A stretch of DNA of 64,000 nucleotides, taken from assembly GCA_005400705.1 (NCBI GenBank), contig GCA_005400705.1_4079.1; one strand, given 5' to 3'. Of this stretch, positions 664-18,125 are shown one piece after another (position 1 is the first letter of the stretch; every line of letters starts with the position of its first letter). A program made the position numbers and the translations under genes. The notes beneath the pieces are model-generated. The model did not search any database, had not been told where the DNA came from, and saw only the letters and a program-made list of their open reading frames with translations. This DNA comes from Escherichia coli. GTDB lineage: Bacteria > Pseudomonadota > Gammaproteobacteria > Enterobacterales > Enterobacteriaceae.

Positions 664-1169
664 GTTTATTAAATGCACGCGAATTGGTTGAGATGTATGA
701 GATTTTGTCTTCATATAAAAATTCTCATGGAGATGTGATTCTCGACAAAAAGTTCCATGTCAGTGTTGAAAATATATCAAATATAGATATGATTTCTTTG
801 GTGGAAAGTAATAAGTCAGGTCTTGAACGCGATATCATGCGTTTGATTTATATTCCCAAACCATCATATACTAATGATAGTTCAATTAGTAATGAGACAT
901 TCATGTATAGTCCTGGTACGGATTCTACTATAGTATCGCTGTCCAATAAATCAATGGGTACTTTCCAATTCATCTATACCAGTACTGATAACATTGAAGA
1001 AATTGAATTTCAAAACAATACATTAAGTCCATGTAGTAGTGTTATAACCTTTATGTCATATCTATGGTCAACTAAAACAAGTGCTGTTGTATATAGTTCA
1101 AATTATACACAAGATAGTATTGTTGAATCATATAAAGTTCTAAAGGAATACTATGAAAATAACAAATGA
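660..1169 (+). CDS. hypothetical protein (169 aa)
   Basis: ORF track; 4-nt overlap with upstream gene. Confidence 0.5.
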   Translation: MSLLNARELVEMYEILSSYKNSHGDVILDKKFHVSVENISNIDMISLVESNKSGLERDIMRLIYIPKPSYTNDSSISNETFMYSPGTDSTIVSLSNKSMGTFQFIYTSTDNIEEIEFQNNTLSPCSSVITFMSYLWSTKTSAVVYSSNYTQDSIVESYKVLKEYYENNK

Positions 1170-1734
1170 TTTTATTAAAAGTGTAGTACACCCTATGCTT
1201 AGTATTATGAAAAAAATACAGAATCTACCGGAAGATAACGATTACAAGTTTAATCGTTTTGATTCAGATGTGTTTTGTATTGAAATTGAAATTAATAACA
1301 ATCGCAATTTACATTTAAAATTCAAAGAATCGTCAAGTCCGTACTACAACTTTGATATGAATTTTAAAATAGATACTGACATTGAAGAAAACGTAATATC
1401 AAATCATACTAGCAAAAATGGTTTTATGCATAGAACTACTATGTACAATAATAAAAATAGTATTATATCTAAATGGAATCATCAATTCACTAAAATTTGT
1501 GAAATTGTATATAGTGATTTTGGTGAAGAGAATTACTTTCAGTTAAGTACAATTCATGAACTTCCACCGTATGATTATGTTAAAACATGGTTTGATATTC
1601 ATAATATAATTGATGATGCAATCAAACTTCCATTTGGTGTGTCAATATCATATACTGCTCCTAAAACATTTGTTTTTACTGAAGATATGATTATGAAAAA
1701 GATATGGGCAATTATCCCACTTATGATGGATTAA
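1153..1734 (+). CDS. hypothetical protein, FQLST-motif paralog family
   Basis: ORF track; motif EENYFQLSTIHELPPYDY near C-terminal half. Confidence 0.5.
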   Translation: MKITNDFIKSVVHPMLSIMKKIQNLPEDNDYKFNRFDSDVFCIEIEINNNRNLHLKFKESSSPYYNFDMNFKIDTDIEENVISNHTSKNGFMHRTTMYNNKNSIISKWNHQFTKICEIVYSDFGEENYFQLSTIHELPPYDYVKTWFDIHNIIDDAIKLPFGVSISYTAPKTFVFTEDMIMKKIWAIIPLMMD

Positions 1735-1795
1735 ATTCGTACCAGGGGTTGACTCTGGTATTTTTGTATGATACATTGTCCTAAAGGAGAATTTT

Positions 1796-2347
1796 ATGAA
1801 CTACAATCATGATCTTTTTACATTATGTGCATCCAAATGTGTTGATGGATGGACAGATAAAATCAATACCATAATTCATCGATATCTGGTCTTTAGTTCT
1901 CGTGCACGAAGTGAGGGGGCTATGGATTTCAAATATACACTATCTATTGATGGTGTAACTATCCATGCAGACGAAGAACGTCTGAGCATTAATTTGTATG
2001 ATTCCTGTGTATTTGCTATTCACCAAAAGATGGGGAAAGGATGGGGTTGTAATAACATTAACTCAAAAGCTATCTTTTGGGTTGGTCACCACCAGACAGT
2101 ACTTGATCCTTCAATCAAATCTAATCTTTTATCCGATAATATGGTTTATGATTTATTGTACTCCGAAGAACAACATTTTCAGTTAAGTACATTACATGAT
2201 CTGGCACAGTACGAGGATTGTTACAAAACATTAGAACTATGCCATTCCCTTGAACTTAAAGATAAATTGATACAAGTTTACCCTTCATTCTTTCATGAAG
2301 AAGTACAAAGTACACTAGATCATATTTTATATGGATACGATAAATGA
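1796..2347 (+). CDS. hypothetical protein, FQLST-motif paralog family
   Basis: AAAGGAGA Shine-Dalgarno before ATG 1796; motif EEQHFQLSTLHDLAQYED. Confidence 0.55.
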   Translation: MNYNHDLFTLCASKCVDGWTDKINTIIHRYLVFSSRARSEGAMDFKYTLSIDGVTIHADEERLSINLYDSCVFAIHQKMGKGWGCNNINSKAIFWVGHHQTVLDPSIKSNLLSDNMVYDLLYSEEQHFQLSTLHDLAQYEDCYKTLELCHSLELKDKLIQVYPSFFHEEVQSTLDHILYGYDK

Positions 2348-2946
2348 GAAAAAGTTATCAAGAAGCTATTGACTTAATTCGTGAAGTTATCAAGGTGGCT
2401 CCTGCTGCTATTGAGTTCAAGAAGTCCATATACAAGAAGTATGGTTCAATGTCGAGTATGTGCTTTCAAAAGAAACGTAGAGCATTCACTACCCAGTACT
2501 GGAATGATTCTATCATCCTGAGCAATGAGACTCAGCGTATTTTAACACTAGAATCTGAACCTAATGAGTACGGGGAAGGGAACATTTGTGTACCTGATTA
2601 TGATGAAATTAACTTCAACTGCGGTGATTTTGAAACAACATTATTACTTCATGAGGGTTATCCAGAAGGTGATGTATTAGCTGAGTACAATCCAAAAACT
2701 AAAATTCTCAAAAGAGGAATCCAGTTCACTATTAATAACAAAGATGATGTTCAAGCAGCACTGATGCAACTGAGTACAAGTGAACCTATCACTATTAGTG
2801 TAGAAGAGTTATGGGGAATTATTTCAGTACTCAATGAGTGCTATAAAGTAAAATCATTGCGTAAACACAGCATTATATTACATACCAATATGGCAAATAT
2901 AAAATGTAAGCACATTCAAGAAATGGTGGTTCCAGATGGACTTTAA
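2344..2946 (+). CDS. hypothetical protein (200 aa)
   Basis: ORF track; ATGA overlap with upstream gene. Confidence 0.5.
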   Translation: MRKSYQEAIDLIREVIKVAPAAIEFKKSIYKKYGSMSSMCFQKKRRAFTTQYWNDSIILSNETQRILTLESEPNEYGEGNICVPDYDEINFNCGDFETTLLLHEGYPEGDVLAEYNPKTKILKRGIQFTINNKDDVQAALMQLSTSEPITISVEELWGIISVLNECYKVKSLRKHSIILHTNMANIKCKHIQEMVVPDGL

Positions 2947-3520
2947 AGAAATTGAAAGTAAATTAAAGTACTTCAAAGATATCAAACTTCTTTGGGAAAA
3001 GTATAAAGTTGATTACAATTTCAGTGATGATGACACTGTAAAAACAATTGAGATTAATATCAAAATCAAGTTCAAGAATAATAATTATGGTGAAGTAACC
3101 TTAAATCATACTGGTATATCACTCAAGGACTATGATGGTTCAACACTCGCATATTTTGACTTCACACCAGAACCAGGTGAAACACTACTTAGTGAGATAA
3201 ATTCCTATGACATGGAAGTGTTCGGCGGGAATCCGTTACTGTTCCGACTTTCTGAAGATTGGAGTGAAGAATACTACACTTACAAAGATGGTGTAGTACT
3301 TGACATTAATGGTGAAGTTGTGAATGACTTGGAAGAACGCTTGTTCCAAGAATTGTGTGTTTCAAATACTTCATATGCATACAATCATATCCTTGACATG
3401 TTTGATTTATATAGTAAAATAGATGCTGAAATGAATGCACATGGTATTCATTATCTTACAATCAACGACTATGCTCAACTTGAAACTGTAGTGAAAGCAT
3501 TGACTAAAGTACTGAAATAG
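2936..3520 (+). CDS. hypothetical protein (194 aa)
   Basis: ORF track. Confidence 0.5.
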   Translation: MDFKEIESKLKYFKDIKLLWEKYKVDYNFSDDDTVKTIEINIKIKFKNNNYGEVTLNHTGISLKDYDGSTLAYFDFTPEPGETLLSEINSYDMEVFGGNPLLFRLSEDWSEEYYTYKDGVVLDINGEVVNDLEERLFQELCVSNTSYAYNHILDMFDLYSKIDAEMNAHGIHYLTINDYAQLETVVKALTKVLK

Positions 3521-3529
3521 GAATGAAAT

Positions 3530-3943
3530 ATGAAACTGTATCATGCGAGTACTGTAAAAATTGATAACTTTTATATCCCGTATGGTGGTCTTCATATGGG
3601 AGGTAAACACAGTGCTTTGGAAGCTGCATTACGCAAGCTCAGAAGTCCACTGAACGTAGTAGACGCATGTACAGTATACTTGCATACCTTAGAAGTTGAT
3701 GTTGATAACGTGCTTCTGTGTGAAGATTTAGGCAGTGATGATGAGTGGCGTTCACTTATTGAGAATTGCACTGCTCAAGGTTATGATGCTGTTCAGTACA
3801 AAAATGATTACGAGCCAGACAATGTTCCTAGTTTTATGATTTGGGATGCATCTAAAGTTCGCATCATTGAAGTTGATGCTATGCATATGGATGAAGCTGA
3901 AATGATTATCGAAGATTTTCTTGATGAATATGAAGGTGTATAA
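3530..3943 (+). CDS. hypothetical protein (137 aa)
   Basis: ORF track; GGAATGAAATATG context. Confidence 0.5.
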   Translation: MKLYHASTVKIDNFYIPYGGLHMGGKHSALEAALRKLRSPLNVVDACTVYLHTLEVDVDNVLLCEDLGSDDEWRSLIENCTAQGYDAVQYKNDYEPDNVPSFMIWDASKVRIIEVDAMHMDEAEMIIEDFLDEYEGV

Positions 3944-4461
3944 TGATTGAACCTATGACAGTACTAGCACGTACTAAATTATTATTGAGGATTGGTGAGA
4001 TATTCACTGATATTTTGTACAGTGGGATTGATATACTTGAATTAGGCATTAAGCAACCGTGGGAATTAACCAAGTTCTCTGCGTTCCATCGTTTATCCTA
4101 TAAAGGGGAAACGGTTCTTGACTTGAACCCCAAAGCCAGATTCATGGACTATGCAGCTTTATATGGAACATGTGGAGGAATAACAAATGATTTCAAAGAA
4201 ATTAAAGTTCAAACAGCGTCACATGAATTTAATGATTTATTATATCCAGAATTTAAGTTAACAGAAGAATCATTCTTCCAGTACTCATTGATTTTAAAAG
4301 ATCTTAATGATTTAGAGTACTACAAAGAGTTAGTAGATATTTTTATTAATACACGACTTTCAAAAGATATTGTGATATTCTGGTATACAGAGCATGTTAC
4401 GGAGGAATTGCTTACTGAATTTCTTCTAAATATGACAGCTATAAAGGAGAAGTTATGTTAG
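3943..4461 (+). CDS. hypothetical protein (172 aa)
   Basis: ORF track; start overlaps upstream stop. Confidence 0.5.
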   Translation: MIEPMTVLARTKLLLRIGEIFTDILYSGIDILELGIKQPWELTKFSAFHRLSYKGETVLDLNPKARFMDYAALYGTCGGITNDFKEIKVQTASHEFNDLLYPEFKLTEESFFQYSLILKDLNDLEYYKELVDIFINTRLSKDIVIFWYTEHVTEELLTEFLLNMTAIKEKLC

Positions 4462-4928
4462 ATATTTTAGGAAACATCGACACTGCAAATTATTTTATTC
4501 AAGATGCATTGTTTAATACAGTACAACAAGGTTTAGAAGTTCACCACAATGTTTATCAGGGTGATGGATATTTTGTTGATATTATCGAGACACGTAAAAA
4601 TACATTTAATGTTAACATTACGACGCTTGGAAGACAGAACATTGCACGAATTTTAGTAAGTAAAGATGAAATAGTACTGAGATACAGTGCTAAGTTTATG
4701 TTGACTTATAAGAAAAAAACTGATATGTTCAGTACTAATTTATTTGATGAGCCATTTGACCTTGAAGATATTGAAGCTACTTTCTTTACTCAAAGTACTA
4801 TGGTAAAATACACTGATGTTCAATTTTCTGCTGATGTAATGTCAGAAACATTACAAATGATCAAGGTATTATTTTATGCATTTGAGCAATTTAGAGAAGA
4901 AAGAAACAAGGTTAACAACCACAGATGA
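4455..4928 (+). CDS. hypothetical protein (157 aa)
   Basis: ORF track; AAGGAGAAG before start. Confidence 0.5.
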   Translation: MLDILGNIDTANYFIQDALFNTVQQGLEVHHNVYQGDGYFVDIIETRKNTFNVNITTLGRQNIARILVSKDEIVLRYSAKFMLTYKKKTDMFSTNLFDEPFDLEDIEATFFTQSTMVKYTDVQFSADVMSETLQMIKVLFYAFEQFREERNKVNNHR

Positions 4929-5289
4929 ACTAATAGAGGCGATCACTAAGGAGTCAAAATACCATAAAGGTATTCGTCTATACTTTATAGATACTGGTTC
5001 GATGGAAGGTACATACATTTATGGTTCACAATCGTTGTCTTATGATGCAATGCCAAATAAACATGTTAAAATCTTTTTAGGTTCAAGTAATAAAACTTTC
5101 TTGACAATTAATGATAGCAGTGTTATTATGAATTCGTTGGGTCATGATAAGGTGGAAATTGATCTAAACACGCTGGAGGATATTGATTTTTTTCAATACG
5201 AGTGTTTAGGTGTTGACTTACATGGCATTAGTAGCGATATGATAAAATCATTAATCAAATATTTCGAAGGTGTTCATAAATGTATCTAA
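4876..5289 (+). CDS. hypothetical protein; true start uncertain (53-nt overlap with upstream ORF)
   Basis: ORF track. Confidence 0.4.
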   Translation: MHLSNLEKKETRLTTTDELIEAITKESKYHKGIRLYFIDTGSMEGTYIYGSQSLSYDAMPNKHVKIFLGSSNKTFLTINDSSVIMNSLGHDKVEIDLNTLEDIDFFQYECLGVDLHGISSDMIKSLIKYFEGVHKCI

Positions 5290-5777
5290 CTAAATCAATG
5301 AAAAATTCATTTGATAAAATCAAGAGTTGTCTTGATGGAGAAAATATTACAAGTGTTACACAAACTGCTGACCAAATTCAAAGCAGTTCAAGTGATTGCA
5401 CTGTTATTTTTGGTTTACATAGTCTGCGTTTATCAATAGTAAATAATATTGACAACACTGCTATTGTAATCACACCATGCAATATTCAAAATGAGAATGG
5501 TGTATATCTTCATCACATGGGAACAGTATTTCACATTTTCAATTCAAACGAAAACATTGTTAAGGAATACAATACTCTTAATATTGATTCAGGTGAATTA
5601 TTTCAAATGAGTACTTTGTACTCATGTAATTTTACAGATACTTCATGTATTTTGCCATTTTTCTTGGAAATTATTAAGAAAATGGAAAATTTAAAACGTG
5701 AATACAATAAAGAAATGGTTCCTGAAGCTATATTAAATATTACTAATGCTATAGAGAAGTATAATGCAGTGACTTAA
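5280..5777 (+). CDS. hypothetical protein, FQMST-motif paralog family
   Basis: ORF track; motif SGELFQMSTLYSC. Confidence 0.5.
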   Translation: MYLTKSMKNSFDKIKSCLDGENITSVTQTADQIQSSSSDCTVIFGLHSLRLSIVNNIDNTAIVITPCNIQNENGVYLHHMGTVFHIFNSNENIVKEYNTLNIDSGELFQMSTLYSCNFTDTSCILPFFLEIIKKMENLKREYNKEMVPEAILNITNAIEKYNAVT

Positions 5778-5819
5778 TAAAAACGCACATGGAGTGCATT
5801 AGAAGATCAAGGATAGATC

Positions 5820-6293
5820 ATGGAGATTAAAACTGTTGAAAATGGGAAAATTGATGACATTTTAGAGTTGGACGCATTCAAAGTTCATGATATAATGTTT
5901 AATGTGAAGGACATTATTCAATGTCTATTTTTGTGTAGCAAGACAATGCATGATTTTTTTCACAACCCAAATACTAACGTTTTTATACTAACAATCAGTA
6001 CTGAAAACTCGTTTATCATGGGTATGCCTATGAGTACAAATGAACAATATATTGATTGTGTTATTCGTAATAACGATAGTATTACGCCACAATCTGAAGT
6101 ACGTAAAAAGAAAAACACCTACACAATCAAAGATGATAAAATTATGATGTGCTGTAGTAAAGGGTTTATATTAGATAATTTTATCGTAAAAGACAGTTAT
6201 CACGACTTTAAAGTATCTGAAAATCAATCCAATGTAGTTCTTTATGCGAGTGACATAGAAAGTCTAACAGTTAAAGATCCCAGTTTGGAGTAA
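5820..6293 (+). CDS. hypothetical protein (157 aa)
   Basis: ORF track. Confidence 0.5.
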   Translation: MEIKTVENGKIDDILELDAFKVHDIMFNVKDIIQCLFLCSKTMHDFFHNPNTNVFILTISTENSFIMGMPMSTNEQYIDCVIRNNDSITPQSEVRKKKNTYTIKDDKIMMCCSKGFILDNFIVKDSYHDFKVSENQSNVVLYASDIESLTVKDPSLE

Positions 6294-6295
6294 GT

Positions 6296-6427
6296 ATGGC
6301 TAAGAAAGTAAACAATTTCGTACAGAAACACATGAATGAGTTTAACAAGCCTCAGACACATGTGGATCGTAAAAAAGAAATGAAAAATGGTAAAGTAAAA
6401 CACAAGTCGAGATTTATTCTCGACTAA
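6296..6427 (+). CDS. small basic protein (43 aa, MAKKVNNFVQKH...), below ORF-track size cutoff
   Basis: ATG at 6296 immediately after upstream stop; uninterrupted frame to TAA at 6425-6427. Confidence 0.3.
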   Translation: MAKKVNNFVQKHMNEFNKPQTHVDRKKEMKNGKVKHKSRFILD

Positions 6428-6450
6428 TTTTTTGTATAAATTTATGAGGA

Positions 6451-7305
6451 TTGTATATGTTAGACATTTCAGATTTTCTTAATTTTAAAAAGTATTCAGT
6501 ACTTGAACATATCAACGAATTTCTGAATTCTACTACACCATTTGGTATCAGTACATCAGATGTATACGATGGATATACAATCTTCCCATACAATGACTTT
6601 CAAATTTCCGTCAAAAAAGGTTTTACAAAAGAAGTTGCAATTCGTGATGTAGTAATGTATAGCGATTCTTCTATTTCTTACTGTCATGATGTGAACAAGT
6701 TTGAATCTCTTGCAACACCTAATTGTTCATACTACAAATCCCATGACACGATGATGTATAAAGAACAACATATCAATGGTGTTTCGTTCTATAAAACTAG
6801 CAGTGATAAATCATATACATCTAGAGATGATTTTGGAAAATACACATGTACTATGCACACGGATAATGAAAAAACAAATTACACTCATTCATTCGAGTCC
6901 AAATTCCAAGAGAGTGAAGTTTCAAATATCACTATACAAGAACAGGTTTCAGAAGGCATTGTATATCGTAGCACTGCATTCTTTCGCATGAAAGATATTG
7001 TCACAGGCAGACCAATGATGTACAATATTGACATATACATGAAAGGTGATATATCCGAAGTAGTGATTAGTACTGGTTATCGTGAAAAATATACAGTTAC
7101 AATGGAATCACCAGATGCATCATTAGTTCACCTCTTTAACAATTTATATACATTCCAATTCGAACTTAGTTTCGATCCAAATGAATATCAAATATTTGAT
7201 ATATTAAAAAGTAATATTATTAATAAGTTAGAATATTACTACAAGTTAGGTGGTAAGATGTGCATAGTTAATACTATGTTACATAACATAAAAGAAACAT
7301 TATAA
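6451..7305 (+). CDS. hypothetical protein (284 aa)
   Basis: ORF track; GAGGA before start; TATAAATT late-promoter-like site at 6435. Confidence 0.5.
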   Translation: MYMLDISDFLNFKKYSVLEHINEFLNSTTPFGISTSDVYDGYTIFPYNDFQISVKKGFTKEVAIRDVVMYSDSSISYCHDVNKFESLATPNCSYYKSHDTMMYKEQHINGVSFYKTSSDKSYTSRDDFGKYTCTMHTDNEKTNYTHSFESKFQESEVSNITIQEQVSEGIVYRSTAFFRMKDIVTGRPMMYNIDIYMKGDISEVVISTGYREKYTVTMESPDASLVHLFNNLYTFQFELSFDPNEYQIFDILKSNIINKLEYYYKLGGKMCIVNTMLHNIKETL

Positions 7306-7321
7306 ATCTGGAGGATTTGGT

Positions 7322-7615
7322 ATGGATACTAAATTCAAAATTATTTTTAAAACTAAGCCGTATATTCCACATACAGCAGAACGTTTTATACCACATGGTG
7401 CTGAGGAAATTATTCACCAAGATGGTACTAAGTTATACCTTGTTCCTTGTTCTTATGAACGTGCAGTAGAAATGTTGCTAATGAATGCTAGACTATGCAA
7501 AAACAAGTACATTAGTTACCTATACAATGAACATATTTTAGATTTCAATGATGAAAATATGTTCATTCTAGCAATTGAGGATTTTGATAACTGGTACAAT
7601 ATTATTAAAATCTAA
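7322..7615 (+). CDS. hypothetical protein (97 aa)
   Basis: ORF track; GGAGGA Shine-Dalgarno. Confidence 0.5.
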   Translation: MDTKFKIIFKTKPYIPHTAERFIPHGAEEIIHQDGTKLYLVPCSYERAVEMLLMNARLCKNKYISYLYNEHILDFNDENMFILAIEDFDNWYNIIKI

Positions 7616-7625
7616 TGAAAATAAT

Positions 7626-7670
7626 GTGAACATATTAGATTCTTGTGATATAATGTTCACATCTTTTTTT
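7626..7670 (+). terminator. hairpin (GTGAACAT / ATGTTCAC) followed by T-run; an extended -10 is embedded in its 3' arm
   Basis: inverted repeat 7626-7633 / 7653-7660 followed by TCTTTTTTT. Confidence 0.5.
7646..7654 (+). promoter_or_regulatory. extended -10 promoter element TGATATAAT
   Basis: exact TGnTATAAT match ~30 nt upstream of gene at 7687. Confidence 0.4.
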
Positions 7671-7686
7671 GATAACGGAGATATAG

Positions 7687-8073
7687 ATGAATACAAGTTC
7701 AGTCCTAAAAGCAATTGGTGGTGTTTTACTCATTGAAGTAAAAGGTGAGCCAAAGCTATGCTGTTTAGAAGATATGAAGAATACAAAACACTTCAGTACT
7801 GGTCAGATTTTCAATGCCATTCGTATTCTAAATGACAAATCCATTGCTGATTATGGAAAAGTTTGGCCTGTATATCAAAATGCTGATGGTGATATCAGTA
7901 CTGATTGGAAAACAATTGAGGCGGTACGACAAAGTTGTGAGAGTGATTGGGACTTCATTGTTGAAGTTTGTGATCAACTACAAGAAGATGTTCCAGAAAT
8001 TGTTGAACGAAAAGAAGTTCTAGCACGACTTGAAAAATTCCGTCACGGAACACTACAGTATGACACAATCTAA
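7687..8073 (+). CDS. hypothetical protein (128 aa)
   Basis: ORF track; AACGGAGATATAG before ATG. Confidence 0.55.
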   Translation: MNTSSVLKAIGGVLLIEVKGEPKLCCLEDMKNTKHFSTGQIFNAIRILNDKSIADYGKVWPVYQNADGDISTDWKTIEAVRQSCESDWDFIVEVCDQLQEDVPEIVERKEVLARLEKFRHGTLQYDTI

Positions 8074-8122
8074 TCTGCTTATTAAAAATATCTAATTAAC
8101 ATTATATAAAAGGAATTTAAAA

Positions 8123-8428
8123 ATGGAAGACAATGGAATGAAATTTGATATGTTTGAAGGTGTACCAGAGTTCGATTTCAACAAACTTGAAGAAGGTGAG
8201 GAATCAGAACTAGTTAGTGTTACACTTAAAGCAGATTCTAAAAAGAAATATTCATCATCAGTACGTTCACGTTCACAAGAAGAATACGAATCATTTATTG
8301 AAAGTATTCATTATGAAACATTCCATCACGCAGATGGAACTCCATATGAAGTACGTGTAACAGTACTGAAGCCTGAAGTAAATCCAATGGAAAATCTACG
8401 TCCTGTTTACTGCTGGGCAAGTCACTAA
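8123..8428 (+). CDS. hypothetical acidic protein (101 aa)
   Basis: ORF track; AAAGGAA before start; terminator follows. Confidence 0.55.
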   Translation: MEDNGMKFDMFEGVPEFDFNKLEEGEESELVSVTLKADSKKKYSSSVRSRSQEEYESFIESIHYETFHHADGTPYEVRVTVLKPEVNPMENLRPVYCWASH

Positions 8429-8436
8429 TAAACCAA

Positions 8437-8468: not shown

Positions 8469-8480
8469 GTCTGGAGATGT

Positions 8481-9935: not shown

Positions 9936-9937
9936 AC

Positions 9938-10558: not shown

Positions 10559-10574
10559 CAAAAGGAATTATATA

Positions 10575-11096
10575 ATGTCGAAGAAGGATGCTTCGAAAAA
10601 ACATTCAGTACATTTCAGTACTGGAAAAGATAACTGGACAACTCCCAAAGATTTCTTTGAAGATTTGGATGAGTTATGGGGATTTACACTTGATGCTGCT
10701 TGTGTTGATGAGACTGCATTGTGTGATAATTTTTTCACTCCAGAAGATGATTCACTATCACAGGATTGGGGAAATAATATAGTTTGGTTGAATCCACCAT
10801 ACAGTGACTTGAAAACTTGGTTATCTAAAGCAGTAGATGCATATAATAACGGGGCAACTGTAGTTATTCTTGTACCCTCAAGAACCGACACAATTGCTTT
10901 TCAGGATTATGCTGCTAAAATATGTGATTGTATTTGTTTTATTAAGGGAAGATTACGATTTGGTATACCAGAAGAACCCGATAAGAAAACAGATTCAGCA
11001 CCATTTCCTTCGTGTCTGATAGTACTGGATAAGTACTTAACCACTGCTAAAATCAATTATCTTAAATCTCTTGGGTTGGTGATGAAGAATTTATGA
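10575..11096 (+). CDS. DNA N6-adenine methyltransferase (phage Dam-like)
   Basis: AAAGGA Shine-Dalgarno; catalytic NPPY motif (VWLNPPYSD) typical of N6-adenine/N4-cytosine methyltransferases. Confidence 0.8.
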   Translation: MSKKDASKKHSVHFSTGKDNWTTPKDFFEDLDELWGFTLDAACVDETALCDNFFTPEDDSLSQDWGNNIVWLNPPYSDLKTWLSKAVDAYNNGATVVILVPSRTDTIAFQDYAAKICDCICFIKGRLRFGIPEEPDKKTDSAPFPSCLIVLDKYLTTAKINYLKSLGLVMKNL

Positions 11097-11626
11097 AAGA
11101 AACATGTGTATTAACGTTTGGTCGTATTAATCCTGTACATCGTGGACATGGTTTAGTTTTTGAAAAGGCCAAAACATTACAAGAACAGTACAATGCTGAT
11201 TTAAAAATATATCTAAGCACCAGTACTGACAATATAAAAAACCCACTCCCACCTGAACTAAAAATGTATTATACAGAGGGATTCTATCCTTCAGTGCAAG
11301 AGAACATCTACACAGAAGACAATCTGTTTGATATAATGAGAGAACTGGATGGAAAGTACTTAGATGTTCTTTTCATATGTGGTTCTGACCGTATTGATTC
11401 TTTTCAAAAAACTCTTGACATGTACAATGGTAAGTTGTATAATTTTTGTAGTATAAAAGCAATTCAGGCAGGTATTGACCGTAATGTAAGTCAATATAGC
11501 TCAACACAAATGCGTAACTTCGCAAAAAATGAAGATTTTGATAGTTTTCGTGAGTTTTTACCTGGAAATGACGAGGACTTAAAAATACAATTATTTGAAG
11601 ACGTTATAAAATACATGAGGAAATAA
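11093..11626 (+). CDS. HxGH-family nucleotidyltransferase, NMN/NaMN adenylyltransferase-like
   Basis: TFGRINPVHRGH (H/TxGH motif) and later SSTQMRN (ISSTxIR-like) typical of NadD/NMNAT-class enzymes; ATGA overlap with methyltransferase gene. Confidence 0.55.
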   Translation: MKETCVLTFGRINPVHRGHGLVFEKAKTLQEQYNADLKIYLSTSTDNIKNPLPPELKMYYTEGFYPSVQENIYTEDNLFDIMRELDGKYLDVLFICGSDRIDSFQKTLDMYNGKLYNFCSIKAIQAGIDRNVSQYSSTQMRNFAKNEDFDSFREFLPGNDEDLKIQLFEDVIKYMRK

Positions 11627-11628
11627 TT

Positions 11629-11922
11629 ATGTCAGTACTGTTCAAAACCAATCCAGTACTTTGGGATCAAAATGAGCAATCAGGATTTCGTTCCATCCAT
11701 GTTGAATACAAAGGTAATACTGTAGTTGCAATTATTGCTAACAAAACTCTAGGAAACTGGACTGCACAGGTTGTTCCTATGGGATATTCTTACACATCTG
11801 ATGAGGTTCAATTCCTGGCTGAACTATATCGTCAAGTGCCGTTTATCATTAATGTACTAGAAGGTAATGATACATTATCACATGAAGATGTGATTAATTT
11901 TCTTGGAAACTTACATGTGTGA
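11629..11922 (+). CDS. hypothetical protein (97 aa)
   Basis: ORF track; GAGGAAATAATTATG. Confidence 0.5.
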   Translation: MSVLFKTNPVLWDQNEQSGFRSIHVEYKGNTVVAIIANKTLGNWTAQVVPMGYSYTSDEVQFLAELYRQVPFIINVLEGNDTLSHEDVINFLGNLHV

Positions 11923-12202
11923 TGAAATAAATCTTACAGGATATTTTTTACAAGAATCAATGATTAAATTTAGTGATAAATTTTCAGTACTGGATGGTAT
12001 CGAAATGTGGCATGTCAAACCACTGTTCCACACTTTCAGTAAAGAGCACAAAATGTTATTGACTGAAGCCAGTAAATCAAATAACATATGTGAAATCAAA
12101 ATTGGTGTAAATGTCTATAAAGGGATGGTTATCTTTTTTGACAATAACAGCAACTACTTTTATATTGTTAAGGAGCATTACGTTGACAAATACAAATACT
12201 AA
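11903..12202 (+). CDS. hypothetical protein (99 aa)
   Basis: ORF track. Confidence 0.5.
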   Translation: METYMCDEINLTGYFLQESMIKFSDKFSVLDGIEMWHVKPLFHTFSKEHKMLLTEASKSNNICEIKIGVNVYKGMVIFFDNNSNYFYIVKEHYVDKYKY

Positions 12203-12797
12203 TACATATTTCCGTTATCTTCGCTTAGGTCTTTCCCTACGTCCGATCCGTGGAAAGTGCGATTCACTCGCTGACCTTGACTATGCATATGCATTACATC
12301 ATGAAGGTGTACAGTATGTATTGGGTGATTATGGTGAATTTGAAGAAACAAATGACAGTACTGGAATTAATGCTGGTGTAGAAAATCTTAACAACATTGC
12401 TAACAGTTCTCGCCATGACATTGTGTTACAGATTCAAAACTTTATTGAGCAGCACACAGGTAAACGTGTTTGGTGCTATGTCGGTACGGATGCACAAATG
12501 TCAATTTCATTCGGTAACGATGAAGGATATGTTGCACAGCTTATTATGGATTTTGAATCTGAAGAGAAGTTTTTAGAATTCAAAGAAAAGATTATTCAGT
12601 CACTTGTTGATATGGGTATCCCCGAAGATAAAATGCCAGAAGTCCAAAACATTGATGAATTTGTTTTGATTCCATCTGATGAGAAATATGATGCAATGTT
12701 TACTGCTCTTAATATTCCAGGAGTTATTGTGGAGTACTTTGATGATGGTGATGATAGTATCTATATCGATCTAGATGACGATGACGACGATGAATAA
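12111..12797 (+). CDS. hypothetical protein with poly-acidic C-terminus (DDGDDSIYIDLDDDDDDE); start uncertain
   Basis: ORF track; 92-nt overlap with upstream gene; no internal in-frame ATG until far downstream. Confidence 0.4.
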   Translation: MSIKGWLSFLTITATTFILLRSITLTNTNTNTYFRYLRLGLSLRPIRGKCDSLADLDYAYALHHEGVQYVLGDYGEFEETNDSTGINAGVENLNNIANSSRHDIVLQIQNFIEQHTGKRVWCYVGTDAQMSISFGNDEGYVAQLIMDFESEEKFLEFKEKIIQSLVDMGIPEDKMPEVQNIDEFVLIPSDEKYDAMFTALNIPGVIVEYFDDGDDSIYIDLDDDDDDE

Positions 12798-12803
12798 TGT
12801 ACA

Positions 12804-12831
12804 TAGCCCGACATAAGTTCGGGCTATTTTT
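12804..12831 (+). terminator. rho-independent terminator
   Basis: stem TAGCCCG...CGGGCTA followed by TTTTT. Confidence 0.75.
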
Positions 12832-12843
12832 GTAAGGGGATAT

Positions 12844-13119
12844 ATGAATTATAAAGTTCTACAATATACATACAGTGTTTTGTTTGATTTACATCACAAT
12901 GGAAGATATCTCAATACAATACGAGAAAACACATTCACTCATACTATCTGGATTAATCACTTAATAATGATACGTGAATATTTTGTTAATAGTGAGATAA
13001 TCATTCGTGGTAAAAAACAGAAGATAGAACAAGTTAATAGTTTTGGTGGTAAATTAGTACTATCATTTATAGATAGTAATACTAATGAAAGATATAGTAT
13101 AGATTTGGTGGACATATGA
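12844..13119 (+). CDS. small protein, tandem paralog array member
   Basis: AAGGGGATATATG; N-terminal YxxLxDL-type motif shared with following ORFs. Confidence 0.5.
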   Translation: MNYKVLQYTYSVLFDLHHNGRYLNTIRENTFTHTIWINHLIMIREYFVNSEIIIRGKKQKIEQVNSFGGKLVLSFIDSNTNERYSIDLVDI

Positions 13120-13382
13120 ATTATAAAGATTTCCTACTAACATACAAGATTATTCGAGATTTAGCACACGACAATGATAGCCCTAGTCTAGAAGACACAT
13201 GCACTGAAATGATTCATACAATTCGTGGTAAGATTAAAAAAAAATTCAGTACTGTTATTATTGGTGATGACCATGCAGAATTTTCTGATATAATCATTAG
13301 ACGTGATGGTAAAGTTGAGGTTCAGTACTACACTGATTTTGGATTTACCAGTATTCCGTTGGAGATATTCCCTTGGGATTAA
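13116..13382 (+). CDS. small protein, tandem paralog array member
   Basis: ATGA overlap; MNYKDFLLTYKIIRDL N-terminus similar to upstream ORF (MNYKVLQYTYSVLFDL). Confidence 0.5.
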   Translation: MNYKDFLLTYKIIRDLAHDNDSPSLEDTCTEMIHTIRGKIKKKFSTVIIGDDHAEFSDIIIRRDGKVEVQYYTDFGFTSIPLEIFPWD

Positions 13383-13684
13383 ATTTAAATGATATACAAT
13401 TCACTTATAAGATCCTATATGATTTGTATGATTTATACCTTGTTAGTAACAAAATAGGTTCACATAACTCATCCAAAGAACAACCATTTATTGATTTATA
13501 TATTGAGTACTTAGATTCAGTAGGTGAATATATAAAAAAGAATTACAGTACTTTTAACGATGGAAATGATATATTCGAGTTCTCTGGAGTTAAATCATAC
13601 AATGGGATTATCCATGTTGAATTTCTTGAAATAACCGATAGGGGATTTATCGAGATTAAAGTTGTGAAGTTGGTGAATTTATAA
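13373..13684 (+). CDS. small protein, tandem paralog array member (TTG start)
   Basis: GGAG 8 nt upstream of TTG at 13373; N-terminus LNDIQFTYKILYDLY matches next ORF. Confidence 0.45.
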   Translation: MGLNLNDIQFTYKILYDLYDLYLVSNKIGSHNSSKEQPFIDLYIEYLDSVGEYIKKNYSTFNDGNDIFEFSGVKSYNGIIHVEFLEITDRGFIEIKVVKLVNL

Positions 13685-13694
13685 GAGGTTACAT

Positions 13695-14006
13695 ATGTTA
13701 TTAAATGATATACAATTCACATACAAATTTTTGTATATCCAATACGCTACGGTTGATGCTGGAGAATATCTCTACGGTGAAATCTATCGTTCGGTATGGA
13801 TAAAGTTTTTGGATGAATTACATGAATATTACCATGATTTGTGTATAGTTCGTGATAATAAAATATACAAATTCCGCGATATTGTTAGTCATAGCGGTAA
13901 GCTACGATTGGAATTAAGTACTGATAGTGATGTTGATTGGATTGGTGTAAATTTACTGGAGTTGGAGAATGAAAAACAACTTAAAGGAAATACAAGTATT
14001 TTATAA
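13695..14006 (+). CDS. small protein, tandem paralog array member
   Basis: AGAGG before ATG; N-terminus MLLNDIQFTYKFLYIQY. Confidence 0.5.
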   Translation: MLLNDIQFTYKFLYIQYATVDAGEYLYGEIYRSVWIKFLDELHEYYHDLCIVRDNKIYKFRDIVSHSGKLRLELSTDSDVDWIGVNLLELENEKQLKGNTSIL

Positions 14007-14253
14007 ATTCTTATACTTGTCATATGTAAAAGATGAGTACTATGAAAGTGTGTATTATTTTTTATGGCAACATTACCGTACTATAGTAAGAGATTTATAT
14101 ATAGGAAAATCTATCATATCCAATGGTGAAAAATGTATATGTACTGATGTTGTTAGTTTTAATGGTTCTTTAACACTGTGTTTCAGATGCGATAATAATA
14201 GTGGGTCATTTTCATTAAACGTATATCAGTTAGAAGGAATAAATTTTGAATAA
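13969..14253 (+). CDS. small protein, tandem paralog array member
   Basis: N-terminus MKNNLKEIQVFYKFLYLSY fits family; 38-nt overlap with upstream gene. Confidence 0.45.
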   Translation: MKNNLKEIQVFYKFLYLSYVKDEYYESVYYFLWQHYRTIVRDLYIGKSIISNGEKCICTDVVSFNGSLTLCFRCDNNSGSFSLNVYQLEGINFE

Positions 14254-14446
14254 ATGTCCATATTGTAACAGTACTCAATTAGCTCGTTTCCGTTTAGATT
14301 CAGACTGGGCGACTGGTGCTGGTGATTTCTTCCCTATTAATGATGATGCGGAATACACCGAAGAACAGCACAAAGATTTTGATAAATCATGGCGACCTGA
14401 CATTGAGTGCATTTATTGCCTTAATTGTGAGCGTGTTCATGACTAA
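14246..14446 (+). CDS. small zinc-ribbon protein (CxxC...CxxC)
   Basis: CPYCNS ... CIYCLNCERV cysteine pairs. Confidence 0.5.
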   Translation: MNKCPYCNSTQLARFRLDSDWATGAGDFFPINDDAEYTEEQHKDFDKSWRPDIECIYCLNCERVHD

Positions 14447-14702
14447 AGCTGAACTAATAGTTCATACATATAAAATGATATCAAGTACTAAGTTATCATA
14501 TAGTGAAGATAATCCAGTACTGGATTATTTTGTTGAATTATTGAAAGAGCATTATATTGGTAAATCACTGATTCTTAATAATATTAATTTCACGGTAAAG
14601 GATGTAGCACCTGGAAAAAACGTACTAATAGTATGTGTTACTTCATCTGATAACCCAGTATACCCAATATCAATAATTTTTGAGATATTAGGAGATTTAT
14701 GA
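14439..14702 (+). CDS. small protein, tandem paralog array member
   Basis: ATG 14439 overlaps upstream stop; MTKAELIVHTYKMISS N-terminus fits family. Confidence 0.45.
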   Translation: MTKAELIVHTYKMISSTKLSYSEDNPVLDYFVELLKEHYIGKSLILNNINFTVKDVAPGKNVLIVCVTSSDNPVYPISIIFEILGDL

Positions 14703-14989
14703 ATATCATTTTAATGCAGAAAACATATGCTATATTGGTGAAAGATTATTCCATTACTTTCGATTCACAAGAAAGTGCTCTACATAACCTATACAAAAAC
14801 GTAACACAAGAATACAGAAATATGTTTTCTGACTTAGTAGTAGGAAGGTATTTCAGTACTAGAAAATACCCAAAACTTCAAATAGTTGATGTTTCTTTTT
14901 ATTTCAATGGTCATATTACTATTCATAGTTTAGACCAAGATTCAACAACGTACTTAAACTTTTCATTTGATGAGGTAACATTTTTATGA
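14699..14989 (+). CDS. small protein, tandem paralog array member
   Basis: ATGA overlap; MNIILMQKTYAILVKDY N-terminus. Confidence 0.5.
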   Translation: MNIILMQKTYAILVKDYSITFDSQESALHNLYKNVTQEYRNMFSDLVVGRYFSTRKYPKLQIVDVSFYFNGHITIHSLDQDSTTYLNFSFDEVTFL

Positions 14990-15148
14990 GAACAGTATTT
15001 TTTATCTGGAGTCTTTTTTCATTGGCAGTACTGACAGTATGTGGGATTTGTTTCCTTTCATCAATTAATACTTGGTATATCAATTTACTATTTCCATTTG
15101 TCTGTGTTGGTTTAGGGTTTACTTTGCATAGTGTATGTAAGGATTACA

Positions 15149-15427
15149 ATGAGAACAAATGAAGTACTTATTGCTGAAACAATGAAGATGATTTACAATA
15201 TCACGTCAGCACAGAATATGCCCTATCCAACTAAGTCTTTATTGAGGACTGTGTATCTGGGGATAGTACAGGAGTACTACAAATCCAAGCACCGAAGCAT
15301 TATTAGTGTTTATCGTGATTATGAAAGGATTCGTATTTTATTCTGGAACAAGAATCGAGTACGTTCTGAATGTGACCTAGTGGACTTTAAATTAGAGAAT
15401 CTTTATTGCTATAAACAGGGACAATAG
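15149..15427 (+). CDS. hypothetical protein (92 aa)
   Basis: AAGGA 5 nt upstream of ATG 15149 (ORF-track start at 15131 is GTG). Confidence 0.45.
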   Translation: MRTNEVLIAETMKMIYNITSAQNMPYPTKSLLRTVYLGIVQEYYKSKHRSIISVYRDYERIRILFWNKNRVRSECDLVDFKLENLYCYKQGQ

Positions 15428-15436
15428 TTTAATTCA

Positions 15437-15445
15437 TGATATAAT
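15437..15445 (+). promoter_or_regulatory. extended -10 promoter element TGATATAAT
   Basis: exact TGnTATAAT match upstream of gene at 15486. Confidence 0.4.
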
Positions 15446-15485
15446 AATGGGTAAGGAACAATAATTAACACAAGGAGTGTGTGAA

Positions 15486-16214
15486 ATGCTTGACCGTATC
15501 CGTTTCGCTACAGAGATGGCGAATGAATTAAACATGGCAAATTTCCAAATGTTAACATCAGTAATGGCTGAACATGCATGTGCTTATTCTGTAAGTGGTG
15601 TGCAGTGTGGTCAGGAGAATATGTTAGCAGATGTTTATAGTGAAGTGCAAAGTAAGCAATATAGTGTAAAGACATATAAGGATAAGTTTGTTAGTCTTTA
15701 TATGAACGAAGATATTGCCGAAGACCGTAAATTCACTGATTTTATTATTGAACGACGAGTATCAGGTGTATCTAATCCTAATGCATCAAGCGAGGAAGTT
15801 TTTGCAGAAGTACTGAAAGATATATACGAAAATGAATTAAAAAGTAAGAATCATTACAATGTACGTGAAACTAACACAGTGCTCTTGGGATATGATGAAG
15901 ACGAAGAATACTATTATTTTCGTATGACTGAAGTTCCTTTTGAATACAAATCTCCATATACAACTACAGTGAAAGAATTTACTGAAAAAAGTAAAAACTT
16001 CATGAAGCATGAAGGAAATCGTTGTAGTATAAATGGTTACGACGAAAATGGCATTCACATTTATGAATGGGTTCACCCAAATTGTCAGACATACACTCGT
16101 TGCTTGAAAAAACGTTATAATTTAGAAGAGCATGAATCATTCTATTTTAAAGTTAAGAAGCAAGGTTACACTCGCCCCGCCGATTCTGAATTGATGGGTA
16201 TGATATATTTCTAA
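15486..16214 (+). CDS. hypothetical protein (242 aa)
   Basis: AGGAG 8 nt upstream of ATG 15486 (ORF-track start 15477 is GTG). Confidence 0.5.
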   Translation: MLDRIRFATEMANELNMANFQMLTSVMAEHACAYSVSGVQCGQENMLADVYSEVQSKQYSVKTYKDKFVSLYMNEDIAEDRKFTDFIIERRVSGVSNPNASSEEVFAEVLKDIYENELKSKNHYNVRETNTVLLGYDEDEEYYYFRMTEVPFEYKSPYTTTVKEFTEKSKNFMKHEGNRCSINGYDENGIHIYEWVHPNCQTYTRCLKKRYNLEEHESFYFKVKKQGYTRPADSELMGMIYF

Positions 16215-16224
16215 GGAAACTTCT

Positions 16225-16506
16225 ATGGATTTTTATCTACACACATGGACATACGAACAATATATTACATTATATCTTGAAATTATTAACACAGAACCTA
16301 GGTGTGGTTGTTGGTTCGCAGATATCATAAAAGAGTATGCTGACGAGTTCGAGTTTGTGTATCTTGGGTCTGATATATTTGTAAAAAGTGTAGGTAAAAC
16401 CGGACGAATCACTGATATAGATTACGACACTGTTAGTGTGAATTTCTATGTTGATTTTCCTGATGCTGGCGTTGATGGTGTATATTGTCTTTATGAAATA
16501 ATTTAA
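16225..16506 (+). CDS. hypothetical small protein
   Basis: ORF track; terminator follows. Confidence 0.5.
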   Translation: MDFYLHTWTYEQYITLYLEIINTEPRCGCWFADIIKEYADEFEFVYLGSDIFVKSVGKTGRITDIDYDTVSVNFYVDFPDAGVDGVYCLYEII

Positions 16507-16514
16507 ATTCTTAG

Positions 16515-16537
16515 GCCAGCGTTTGCTGGTCTTTTTT
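16515..16537 (+). terminator. rho-independent terminator
   Basis: stem CCAGC...GCTGG followed by TCTTTTTTC. Confidence 0.65.
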
Positions 16538-16550
16538 CGCAGGTACAAAG

Positions 16551-16853
16551 ATGTTCAGTATAGATTTAATTAACAGTACTATCAAAATGTTGGCTGATTT
16601 GGTGAGACAATCAAATGGAACTTTATATTCTGCAATGTATAAAATGTTTGACCGATATATCAAGGATTGTAACATATCATTATATGGACTTGCTGTTGAT
16701 ATAGACGATTACTATGGAATTAATACTTCATATAAAACAGGAATTTTAATTGGTATTAATATAAAGATGGGGTATTTCCCTTATTACTGTATAGGATTAC
16801 CAGATAATACTTTGGTAGAATATCCAGCCAGTACTATTAAATTAAGAGGATAA
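16551..16853 (+). CDS. hypothetical protein (100 aa)
   Basis: ORF track. Confidence 0.5.
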   Translation: MFSIDLINSTIKMLADLVRQSNGTLYSAMYKMFDRYIKDCNISLYGLAVDIDDYYGINTSYKTGILIGINIKMGYFPYYCIGLPDNTLVEYPASTIKLRG

Positions 16854-16860
16854 AACTAAA

Positions 16861-17439
16861 ATGAATGTATTAGAATTAAGTACTAAGCTGATTAGTATGC
16901 GTAATGAGTGGTACGATTGGTTTTATAATGGTACTGATATGGATTTTTCAAAATATCCATTTATGGAATCAGGATGTGATGCAAGATACCGCTGGTTGAG
17001 CAAAGATTGTTCTGGTTTACATATTCTAGTTGACGATAGTGGTCAGGGAATTATAAAAGATTTACTTCAAGTTGAACAACTCGTCCATGATAATTGGTGT
17101 GATAACGATCCATACCTTGGAAATATGATTTATGTAAGTGAAGATGATTGCATATTCGTTATCCAGCGTCATGGTAATTCTATGTTTTATGTAGCAGACA
17201 GCAGTACTCCAGAAGGTGCAGCAGCCGATGGTCTTATGCCTAAGATTGATATATTGGAATTTGGATTACCTGAGCACTTCCAGATTAGTACTTTATACGA
17301 TATTCCACCACTTGAGTTCTTTGAAGAATTTAAATTGTACTACAATGATCTTCAAAAATTGAGTACTGATCGACGCATTGAAATAACTGTTAAGTACATG
17401 GACGGAACGAAATTAACTGATACGGGGATAGAATTTTGA
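16861..17439 (+). CDS. hypothetical protein, FQIST-motif paralog family
   Basis: ORF track; motif PEHFQISTLYDIPPLEF. Confidence 0.5.
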   Translation: MNVLELSTKLISMRNEWYDWFYNGTDMDFSKYPFMESGCDARYRWLSKDCSGLHILVDDSGQGIIKDLLQVEQLVHDNWCDNDPYLGNMIYVSEDDCIFVIQRHGNSMFYVADSSTPEGAAADGLMPKIDILEFGLPEHFQISTLYDIPPLEFFEEFKLYYNDLQKLSTDRRIEITVKYMDGTKLTDTGIEF

Positions 17440-18125
17440 TTAAAGATTTAGATAGAATTTTATATGTACTAAGGGGTGTAATTACATTACATCCACAAAT
17501 CAATCGAATTGAAAGTACATTTCAGTTGGAGTCAAGAGAAACTCCATATTCACATATATCAAATGTAGTTGGTTCACTCAGTACTGAAGACTCGCCTTAC
17601 GATATTTGTGTATGTGAAGTACAACCAAGTTCGGATCTTGGATTTGCTATTTTTGATAAAAATCAAAATCTCATTAGTATGTTTCAGTGCAATAATCCTT
17701 TTTGGAAAACATGCCTGTATCCAGAGTGGGCGATGCTTGATCCAACCAAGAGTACCATTAAAGTTTATGACTCTAAAAATGATGAAGTCGTTATTGATTT
17801 GGATGAGTCAATGTCAGAGGAAGAACACTTTCAGCTAATGATGATGCGTGCTATGCCTGAGTACAATGCAATGATTAACACTGTGCAATACATTAAGGAT
17901 ACTATGCCATCATTGCGTACACATGAGTTTTGTCATCCTGTATTGTATGAACATTTGGATTTAGATTTCAGTACTATTAAATTTAAAGATAGTGTTATTA
18001 GATATATCCAAGAGGTTACTAAATTTGATTTTATTAGTACTATGAACAATAATCCAAAAACTAATTTTAGGCATCAGTACAATGAATCTTTGTCCGGTGG
18101 ACGCGATACAAGTTGGTGGAAATAA
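17436..18125 (+). CDS. hypothetical protein, divergent member of FQLST family
   Basis: ORF track; motif EEEHFQLMMMRAMPEYN. Confidence 0.5.
   Translation: MIKDLDRILYVLRGVITLHPQINRIESTFQLESRETPYSHISNVVGSLSTEDSPYDICVCEVQPSSDLGFAIFDKNQNLISMFQCNNPFWKTCLYPEWAMLDPTKSTIKVYDSKNDEVVIDLDESMSEEEHFQLMMMRAMPEYNAMINTVQYIKDTMPSLRTHEFCHPVLYEHLDLDFSTIKFKDSVIRYIQEVTKFDFISTMNNNPKTNFRHQYNESLSGGRDTSWWK

Follow-up and report, generated by a model that had tools for sequence, protein, structure and literature searches.

The 64,000-nt stretch of DNA analysed here (the window; assembly GCA_005400705.1, filed under Escherichia coli) raises the question of why at least six otherwise different open reading frames (ORFs), all of them within its first 18.2 kb, share a short block built around Phe-Gln. 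An earlier note on this DNA, made from the letters alone, had attributed the block to a shared domain spread by either domain shuffling or gene duplication. The first 18.2 kb of the window aligned with Escherichia phage 121Q (KM507819, positions 183392-201599) at 98.3% identity and with other Asteriusvirus jumbo coliphages (PBECO4, phAPEC6, and G17) at 96-98% identity; judged by its sequence, the window is DNA of an Asteriusvirus jumbo coliphage, and almost every gene under the matched stretch is annotated as 'hypothetical protein' in 121Q. We conclude with high confidence that all six are members of a single, very large multigene family of this phage lineage, hereafter the FQ family, that arose by gene duplication. 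The earlier note was thus right in linking the six ORFs, though it greatly underestimated the scale of the family, which has at least eight members in the window, approximately 41 in the examined 121Q stretch, and 51 in one complete related genome.

The six ORFs (8-235, 1153-1734, 1796-2347, 5280-5777, 16861-17439, and 17436-18125; ORFs are named by their window coordinates) exist where they had been placed, all on the + strand. In the six-frame translation of the window, the string FQ[LMI]ST occurred five times (nt 56-70, 1537-1551, 2177-2191, 5601-5615, and 17278-17292), each time inside one of these + strand ORFs, compared with a mean of 0.43 and a maximum of 2 in dinucleotide-preserving shuffles. 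BLASTP alignments extended over 75-82 residues (1796-2347 with 17436-18125 or 16861-17439, and 1153-1734 with 17436-18125); the common motif is thus more frequent than chance would give, and its flanks are alignable. The wording of the motif required adjustment. The sixth ORF, 17436-18125, has EEEHFQLMMM, in which FQ is retained without ST, and the literal form E-x-[FH]-F-Q was too narrow, fitting exactly only 1796-2347, though a looser form held: Y, L, F, or H precedes the F, and some members have a shorter acidic run. The tail xL(P/A)xY described for some of the ORFs was present in 1153-1734 (ELPPY) and 1796-2347 (DLAQY) and only loosely so in 17436-18125 (AMPEY) and 16861-17439 (IPPLE), so that these four have a tail of this type in common, and two of the Eneladusvirus members carry similar tails (DIPFYED and DIIPF). 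Upstream of the window in 121Q, the broad motif [DE][DE]x[FYLM]FQxS[TL][VI] was present in approximately 20 further ORFs, and a 96.6-kb stretch of 121Q contained 30 occurrences of it, all on the + strand, with 0.23 expected. The DNA encoding the motif is only approximately 50% identical between copies, and synonymous codons differ (TTT/TTC, CAG/CAA, and AGC/AGT/TCA), indicating conservation at the protein level; a DNA-level repeat as the source of the motif was rejected on the same synonymous variation.

A jackhmmer search of the 121Q ORFs, seeded with the ortholog of 1796-2347, retrieved 42 ORFs at E ≤ 0.05, of which 40 satisfied the inclusion threshold of ≤ 0.005; none was on the minus strand. 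Because the single-seed search did not expand with an inclusion threshold of 1e-3 and needed 0.005-0.01, shuffled decoys and minus-strand ORFs were used as a control for drift; one of approximately 170 shuffled decoys was recruited in the control run, and a few marginal members may therefore be false. In EC22.5-2, an assembled complete genome that matches the first 18.2 kb of the window at 96.9% identity, 51 of the 560 non-overlapping ORFs matched the family profile at E < 0.01, compared with none of 560 shuffled decoys. These 51 members total 24.4 kb, equivalent to 6.9% of the genome and approximately 9% of its genes. Thirty-eight lie in a main array of approximately 42 kb, interleaved with other small genes, 11 in a second cluster, and two as singletons, and the 3' part of the main array corresponds to the first 18 kb of the window. 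The members fall into two size classes of approximately 105-140 and 145-230 amino acids (aa), the longer ones having extra N-terminal sequence before the common core, and profile envelopes mostly span approximately 50-110 residues.

An independent profile built from 34 members, none of them from the window, was searched against 228 window ORFs and recovered six of them at E-values from 5e-9 to 9e-4 (Table 1). Two of the six, 3943-4461 and 58320-58721, were absent from the earlier note, and the latter lies 40 kb away from the others. The motif [ST]-E-E-x-[YLF]-F-Q-x-S-[TL]-[VLI]-aromatic is present in 8-235, 1153-1734, 1796-2347, 3943-4461, 5280-5777, and 16861-17439 and only partial in 17436-18125 (FQLMM) and 58320-58721 (FQEDT). 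Its position is constant: the Q lies at 0.57-0.81 of the protein length in all 40 of the 121Q members, which include the orthologs of 1153-1734, 1796-2347, 3943-4461, 5280-5777, and 17436-18125, and the relative position is 0.73 in both 16861-17439 and 58320-58721. We counted 16861-17439 and 17436-18125 as members because BLASTP linked them to 1153-1734 and 1796-2347 at E 0.016-0.02, with alignments of 21-82 residues: 16861-17439 matched 1153-1734 over the motif block with an E-value of 0.016, and 17436-18125, which was also recruited by jackhmmer, was 27% identical to 1796-2347 over 82 aa with an E-value of 0.02. One further ORF, 2936-3520, missed by the plain hidden Markov model (HMM) and matched by hhalign against the outside-only profile, is a probable member, and two others are possible, weak candidates; control enzymes gave hhalign P-values of 0.44-0.6. 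Three ORFs with motif-like strings at the right position (2344-2946, 4455-4928, and 4876-5289) were indistinguishable from controls by HMM and hhalign and were not counted.

Table 1. Members and candidate members of the FQ family in the window, with their motif blocks and profile scores
Coordinates	Strand	Feature	Motif block (window position) and following residues	Outside-only profile E	hhalign P
2..235 (8-235 in the earlier note)	+	C-terminal 78 codons of a 193-aa member (121Q gp397 ortholog); gene begins upstream of the window	VEEELFQMSTVI (41-76)	5e-9	
1153..1734	+	Family member, 193 aa (phAPEC6 gp412c)	GEENYFQLSTIH (1522-1557), then ELPPYDY	1.2e-4	2e-6
1796..2347	+	Family member, 183 aa	SEEQHFQLSTLH (2162-2197), then DLAQYED	7e-5	2.7e-4
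3943..4461	+	Member absent from the earlier note, 172 aa	TEESFFQYSLIL (4261-4296)	1.4e-4	5e-6
5280..5777	+	Family member, 165 aa	DSGELFQMSTLY (5586-5621)	2.5e-4	2e-4
16861..17439	+	Divergent member, 192 aa	GLPEHFQISTLY (17263-17298), then DIPPLEF	0.07	0.013
17436..18125	+	Divergent member, 229 aa	SEEEHFQLMMMR (17814-17849), S-T replaced by M-M, then AMPEYNA	0.34	1.2e-3
58320..58721	+	Dispersed member absent from the earlier note, 133 aa	NEETFFQEDTII (58590-58625)	9e-4	5e-4
2936..3520	+	Probable, very divergent member, 194 aa	Degenerate, LEERLFQELCVS (expected relative position, 0.72)		4.8e-4
235..663	+	Possible (weak), very divergent member inside the array, 142 aa	No recognisable FQ motif		1.7e-3 (54 columns)
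6451..7305	+	Possible (weak) member domain, C-terminal third of a 284-aa protein	NNLYTFQFELSF		4.7e-3

Of the two origins offered in the earlier note, gene duplication is supported by the tandem arrays, the constant motif position, the envelopes of approximately 50-110 residues, and the single-domain structure modelled from the paralog alignment, and domain shuffling is not, the members being whole-gene paralogs that have diverged to approximately 15% identity with the motif in a constant place. All genes in the region matched to 121Q are on the + strand and densely packed, with frequent overlaps of start and stop codons. Terminator-like hairpins numbered 19, compared with 6.5 expected, splitting the region into a few multi-gene units, and strong + strand hairpins of this kind occupy the scarce intergenic gaps (1739-1761, 6405-6425, 8435-8463, 12803-12827, and 16513-16532). 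A promoter scan returned 111 sites, compared with 116 expected, and was uninformative in this AT-rich DNA.

The consensus of 83 members, from three genomes and the window, is [LM]-[ST]-E-E-E-[YLF]-F-Q-x-S-[TL]-[VLI]-[YHFW]-[DN]. Relative to Q at position 0 (95%, otherwise M), it consists of L/M at -7 (43%), S/T/D at -6 (69%), E at -5 (69%), E at -4 (63%), E at -3 (42%), Y/L/F at -2 (75%), and F at -1 (100%), followed by a variable residue at +1 (Y 20%, L 17%, Q, E, N, and M), S at +2 (71%), T/L at +3 (85%), V/L/I at +4 (91%), Y/H/F/W at +5 (74%), and D/N at +6 (51%). Structure prediction of the shared segment was confident for one paralog, P0001 (150 aa, outside the window), for which AlphaFold2 (AF2) with a 36-sequence family alignment including window members gave a predicted local distance difference test score (pLDDT) of 91.3 and a predicted template modelling score of 0.86. 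The model consists of an N-terminal helix (3-21), seven strands within 30-91, a short helix (93-97), a helix at 103-109 (EEYYFQN) directly after S102, a turn at 110-114 (STVYD), a long helix (115-129), and a C-terminal part in which a strand (135-138, corresponding to the 'FYLD' block that one subfamily conserves) is accompanied by short terminal helices. The motif block has a pLDDT of approximately 98, and conservation in the alignment is maximal exactly in the two motif elements, the EEYYFQN helix and the STVYD turn, and low in the sheet and the N-terminal helix. The predicted fold is without a solved relative.

A helix N-capping box with a hydrophobic staple consists of a hydrophobic residue, S/T, two arbitrary residues, E, and a second hydrophobic residue. 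Since the model helix starts straight after S102, the acidic half of the motif has the form of such a box, and [LM]-[ST]-E-E-E-[YLF] fits its pattern. The box is a generic structural device and accounts for the acidic half of the motif, though not for the invariant F-Q. On this model, we consider, with fairly good confidence, that the motif is a structural core of the domain, in which helical periodicity would bury F and Q.

The family seems confined to these phages and their relatives. Sequence searches of Pfam, NCBIfam, and PADLOC gave no match above any curated threshold, and the best match in the PDB was chance-like (E 0.27). PHROGs assigns each of the ten window ORFs tested to its own separate family (among them phrog_34636, 29816, 38478, 37163, 32531, and 35972, all 'unknown function'); the database thus treats the ortholog groups as separate and has no record of a superfamily connecting them. 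Only 31 matches, all of them family members or fragments, came from a profile search of 1.84 billion representative proteins, and word-indexed homolog searches gave only 42 and 16 proteins, from E. coli, E. coli jumbo-phage, or metagenome records. With 1796-2347 as the query, tblastn matches were restricted to jumbo phages of Escherichia and Salmonella. A Foldseek search of predicted viral structures (BFVD) returned only uncharacterised proteins of phages 121Q, SP27, RaK2 (Klebsiella; four proteins with neighbouring accession numbers), GAP32 (Cronobacter), fHe-Yen9-04 (Yersinia), and BF (Serratia). In the Eneladusvirus Erwinia phage pEa_SNUABM_47, at least five adjacent motif-bearing members are found at the syntenic locus, with the same genes for a methyltransferase, a cytidylyltransferase, and an RNA ligase downstream of them, and a 10.9-kb metagenome contig with 27.7% G+C contains at least nine members. 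Related jumbo-phage genera have smaller sets of the family. In Turkey5, a divergent relative, the array is kept in synteny, with approximately 36 members in the examined locus.

The ratio of nonsynonymous to synonymous substitution rates (dN/dS) relative to phage TH47 was 0.15-0.65 for members, compared with 0.03-0.09 for the majority of the conserved neighbours, the identifiable enzymes among them. The Turkey5 orthologs of window members were 21-51% identical in amino acids or gave no match (8-235 and 16861-17439; for the latter, BLASTP found no ortholog in the sampled syntenic region of Turkey5), compared with 77-100% identity for the run of conserved genes that starts at the methyltransferase and ends with the RNA-repair cluster. 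The members are thus under purifying selection, yet evolve several-fold faster than core genes. Furthermore, because the paralogs are far more divergent than the orthologs, most of the duplications predate the split between 121Q-type and Turkey5-type phages.

As for function, the genes sit in a non-structural + strand block, and the published mass-spectrometric virion proteome of phAPEC6 (62 proteins) contains nothing between gp347 and gp549. Since the phAPEC6 orthologs (gp411c, gp412c, and gp415c) fall in this interval, the family is not detectably structural. The members are mostly acidic, with a median isoelectric point of 4.8 (range, 4.05-9.07), and no obvious hydrophobic membrane-spanning stretch was noticed on reading the sequences by eye. 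The absence of any H, C, K, R, or D conserved in every member speaks against an enzyme.

These results show that a whole gene was duplicated in tandem repeatedly and that the copies diverged to approximately 15% identity. For the products, we propose the following scenario. In each of them, S/T-E-E-E would open a short helix ending in the invariant F-Q, and S-[TL]-[VLI]-aromatic-[DN] would form a tight turn into a long amphipathic helix; the resulting helical hairpin would pack on a seven-stranded antiparallel sheet, preceded in the longer members by an N-terminal helix. The sheet and the N-terminal parts, as the variable regions, may carry specificity, and the products may act as diversified binding proteins directed against different host or defence proteins, possibly in the pre-replicative phase. 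We favour this explanation as a whole, a lineage-specific family with a structural keystone motif and a diversified set of binders, somewhat more than we doubt it; its functional part, a role in host interaction through takeover or counter-defence, is put forward only tentatively.

African swine fever virus MGF360/505 and the host-range families of poxviruses consist of dozens of tandem, deeply diverged non-structural paralogs, which are lineage-confined, evolve faster than core genes, and have a demonstrated role in host range or immune evasion. The FQ family resembles them in being tandem, diverged, non-structural, lineage-confined, and fast-evolving, and differs in having no sequence or structural relation to them, a bacterial host, and a role that is only guessed.

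Several observations weigh against parts of this scenario. The whole-gene dN/dS of the members is below 1, and there is thus no direct sign of an arms race. Against the outside-only profile, 16861-17439 and 17436-18125 scored only marginally (E 0.07 and 0.34, respectively). AF2 of the window protein 1796-2347 with an 18-sequence paralog alignment reached a pLDDT of only 48, so that a common fold is attributed to the window members by homology, the confident model being that of P0001, which is not encoded in the window. The putative burial of F and Q derives from the hydrophobic/variable periodicity of the helix, not from model coordinates. Furthermore, conservation of F in 100% and Q in 95% of paralogs that are approximately 15% identical goes beyond that of most purely structural positions and would also fit contact with a common partner.

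The last point leads to the more serious of the alternatives that give the motif a binding or processing role, namely that it is an exposed docking element for one common partner (for instance a hub protein of the host, a protease, or a factor of the phage), while the variable sheets recruit different targets. F-box and PRANC proteins follow such an adaptor logic. Besides the extreme conservation of F and Q, docking would fit the division of the protein into a conserved C-terminal helical module and a variable N-terminal sheet, and the same gene block also contains a gene for a ClpP-like protease (31700-32395 in the window, placed by synteny with 121Q gp464). However, the alternation of hydrophobic and variable residues is that expected when one face of a helix is buried, S/T-E-E-E at the beginning is a common way of capping a helix, the family has no known partner, and nothing connects the ClpP-like gene with it; we regard docking as unlikely. 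If it were true, the largest multigene family of Rak2-like phages, of unsolved fold, might use an exposed E-E-x-x-F-Q helix to dock a library of modular adaptors on one partner, and the array might by analogy be a bacterial-virus counterpart of the viral F-box/PRANC families, an extension that we consider quite unlikely.

Domain shuffling, in which proteins of unrelated origin would each have received the motif on a short mobile module, is improbable. Pairwise identity outside the motif is near noise and PHROGs separates all ten window ORFs tested, as shuffling would have it, but the motif position is constant, profile alignments run over approximately 50-110 residues, the genes are arranged in tandem, the paralog alignment yields a single-domain model, and Foldseek aligns approximately 150-180 columns between paralogs of 15-25% identity.

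The motif also recalls the sites of Gln-specific 3C and NIa (TEV) proteases, LEVLFQ/GP and ENLYFQ/S (the slash marking the cut), and cleavage after Q would release a sheet domain and a helical peptide. Counting back from Q as position 1, the block has E at position 6 (69%), Y/L/F at position 3 (75%), F at position 2 (100%), and Q itself (95%). However, the residue after Q is variable and often bulky instead of G or S, S being found at the second position after Q; conservation runs five to six residues past Q, which is unusual for such sites; and the block is helical and in the folded core of the P0001 model, where an extended stretch at the surface would be expected. The region examined showed no 3C-like protease, though no genome-wide search for one was made. 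Processing at the motif is thus very improbable, and we give as little credence to the idea that the products are virion-internal or injected proteins, a multi-copy cargo like the internal proteins of T4. Such a cargo would agree with small, mostly acidic, and numerous proteins, but the phAPEC6 orthologs (gp 400s) are not among the 62 virion proteins, and the genes lie among non-structural genes.

The bacterial clamp-binding motif is QL[SD]LF or QLxLxL, and a family targeting the host sliding clamp through a beta-clamp-binding peptide would have Q, S at +2, L/T at +3, and an aromatic residue at +5 in partial agreement with it, some members even carrying QLSLLF or QESLVF. L follows Q in only 17% of members, though, and the register is one residue off the pentapeptide consensus; instead of a flexible tail, the block is a folded segment inside the protein, and some fifty paralogs directed at one target would be hard to explain, leaving this reading with scarcely any credibility. 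For both the TEV/3C sites and the clamp motif, the residue pattern of the FQ block thus agrees in part, whereas some defining positions fail and the block lies in a folded context. That a short motif recurred by chance in an AT-rich genome, without homology, has only the shortness of the motif in its favour and a negligible probability given the counts (5 compared with 0.43 expected in the window, 30 compared with 0.23 in 121Q, and 51 compared with 0 for decoys) and the recovery of window members by an independent profile.

Tandem arrays of paralogs have been reported in jumbo phages, including an array of more than 30 members given without coordinates (Hua et al., 2017), a statement repeated in a 2026 review, and nearly 10% of the products of RaK2 have been described as paralogues (RaK2 paper, 2013, PMC3622015). 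The FQ family has in common with these arrays the genomes concerned and the general process, in which tandem duplication expands the genome. In a BLAST clustering of the 121Q region, the largest family was a different one, consisting of 25 proteins of 53-97 aa (approximately 65 aa) with a mean identity of 36%; at E 1e-4, the FQ family broke into groups of at most nine, and a single BLAST-recognisable array of more than 30 was not encountered. Since Hua et al. give no coordinates, we infer that their obvious array corresponds to the 25-protein family and not to the FQ family. Unlike the reported arrays, the FQ superfamily is visible only through profiles, motif, and structure. The literature contained only general statements on paralogs and no description of this superfamily; as far as could be found, the phenomenon of tandem duplication is thus known, and the FQ superfamily, its size, its motif, and its fold are apparently new. 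The 25-member family lies upstream of the window (121Q 155.7-175.2 kb) and is partly interleaved with the FQ array, and another tandem family of nine members (60-81 aa) lies further upstream (121Q 131.8-135.2 kb).

Approximately 9% of the genes in these 350-kb phages thus form one family that is annotated as dozens of unrelated 'hypothetical proteins', and its recognition shrinks the unexplained part of the genomes. The family is a concrete case of genome growth by duplication and deep divergence, and it offers an experimental target with one motif, two invariant residues, and one deletable array. If a role in host takeover or counter-defence proves true, many new inhibitors of bacterial proteins could be drawn from the array; if the members are dispensable, this would bear on how much of a jumbo genome is under selection.

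Several further features of the window were observed. Synonymous divergence from TH47 across window positions 1-18125 was patchy, ranging from approximately 0.01-0.1 (8-235, 13695-14253, and 16861-17439) up to 1-2 or more in neighbours, which suggests a mosaic of recent recombination patches. A second tandem family at 12844-14253 consists of five small ORFs (88-103 aa), several of which open with a common ...IQFTYK.LYDL... block; its copies matched one another by BLASTP at E-values of 8e-6 to 1e-3, and four of the five had their best match in a single Turkey5 ORF (31128-31412 of the examined locus), suggesting that the copy number of this family differs in Turkey5. Two adjacent large ORFs, 50608-53304 and 53830-56649 (898 and 939 aa), are paralogs with 27% identity over 940 residues (E 3e-61). 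Three neighbouring ORFs of 169-188 aa (56717-57283, 57290-57811, and 57808-58317), located immediately upstream of the dispersed FQ member 58320-58721, are also paralogous, the first pair matching by BLASTP at E 3e-13 and the third matching the other two at E 0.011-0.034. ORF 11093-11626 (121Q gp418) is labelled 'ribonucleotide reductase A (NrdB)' in the 121Q record and a cytidylyltransferase or phosphopantetheine adenylyltransferase in other records; the 'NrdB' label probably reflects a misannotation.

Within the first 19.6 kb of the window, conservation at the DNA level was highest in a 600-bp stretch without a long ORF at 9333-9970, which was 88% identical to Turkey5 (remaining DNA-alignable segments, 73-85%) and 94% identical to TH47; with an Eneladusvirus phage it still aligned over 505 nt at 70% identity. 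An 82-aa ORF inside it had a dN of 0.015 and a dS of 0.02 relative to TH47, compared with a dS of 0.5-0.9 in neighbouring genes. Searches of this stretch for tRNA genes and Rfam families gave no match. In an alignment of four sequences, helices were predicted with 22 pairs kept through two-sided changes and a folding z-score of only -1.4, and the stretch may be a non-coding RNA or a regulatory region.

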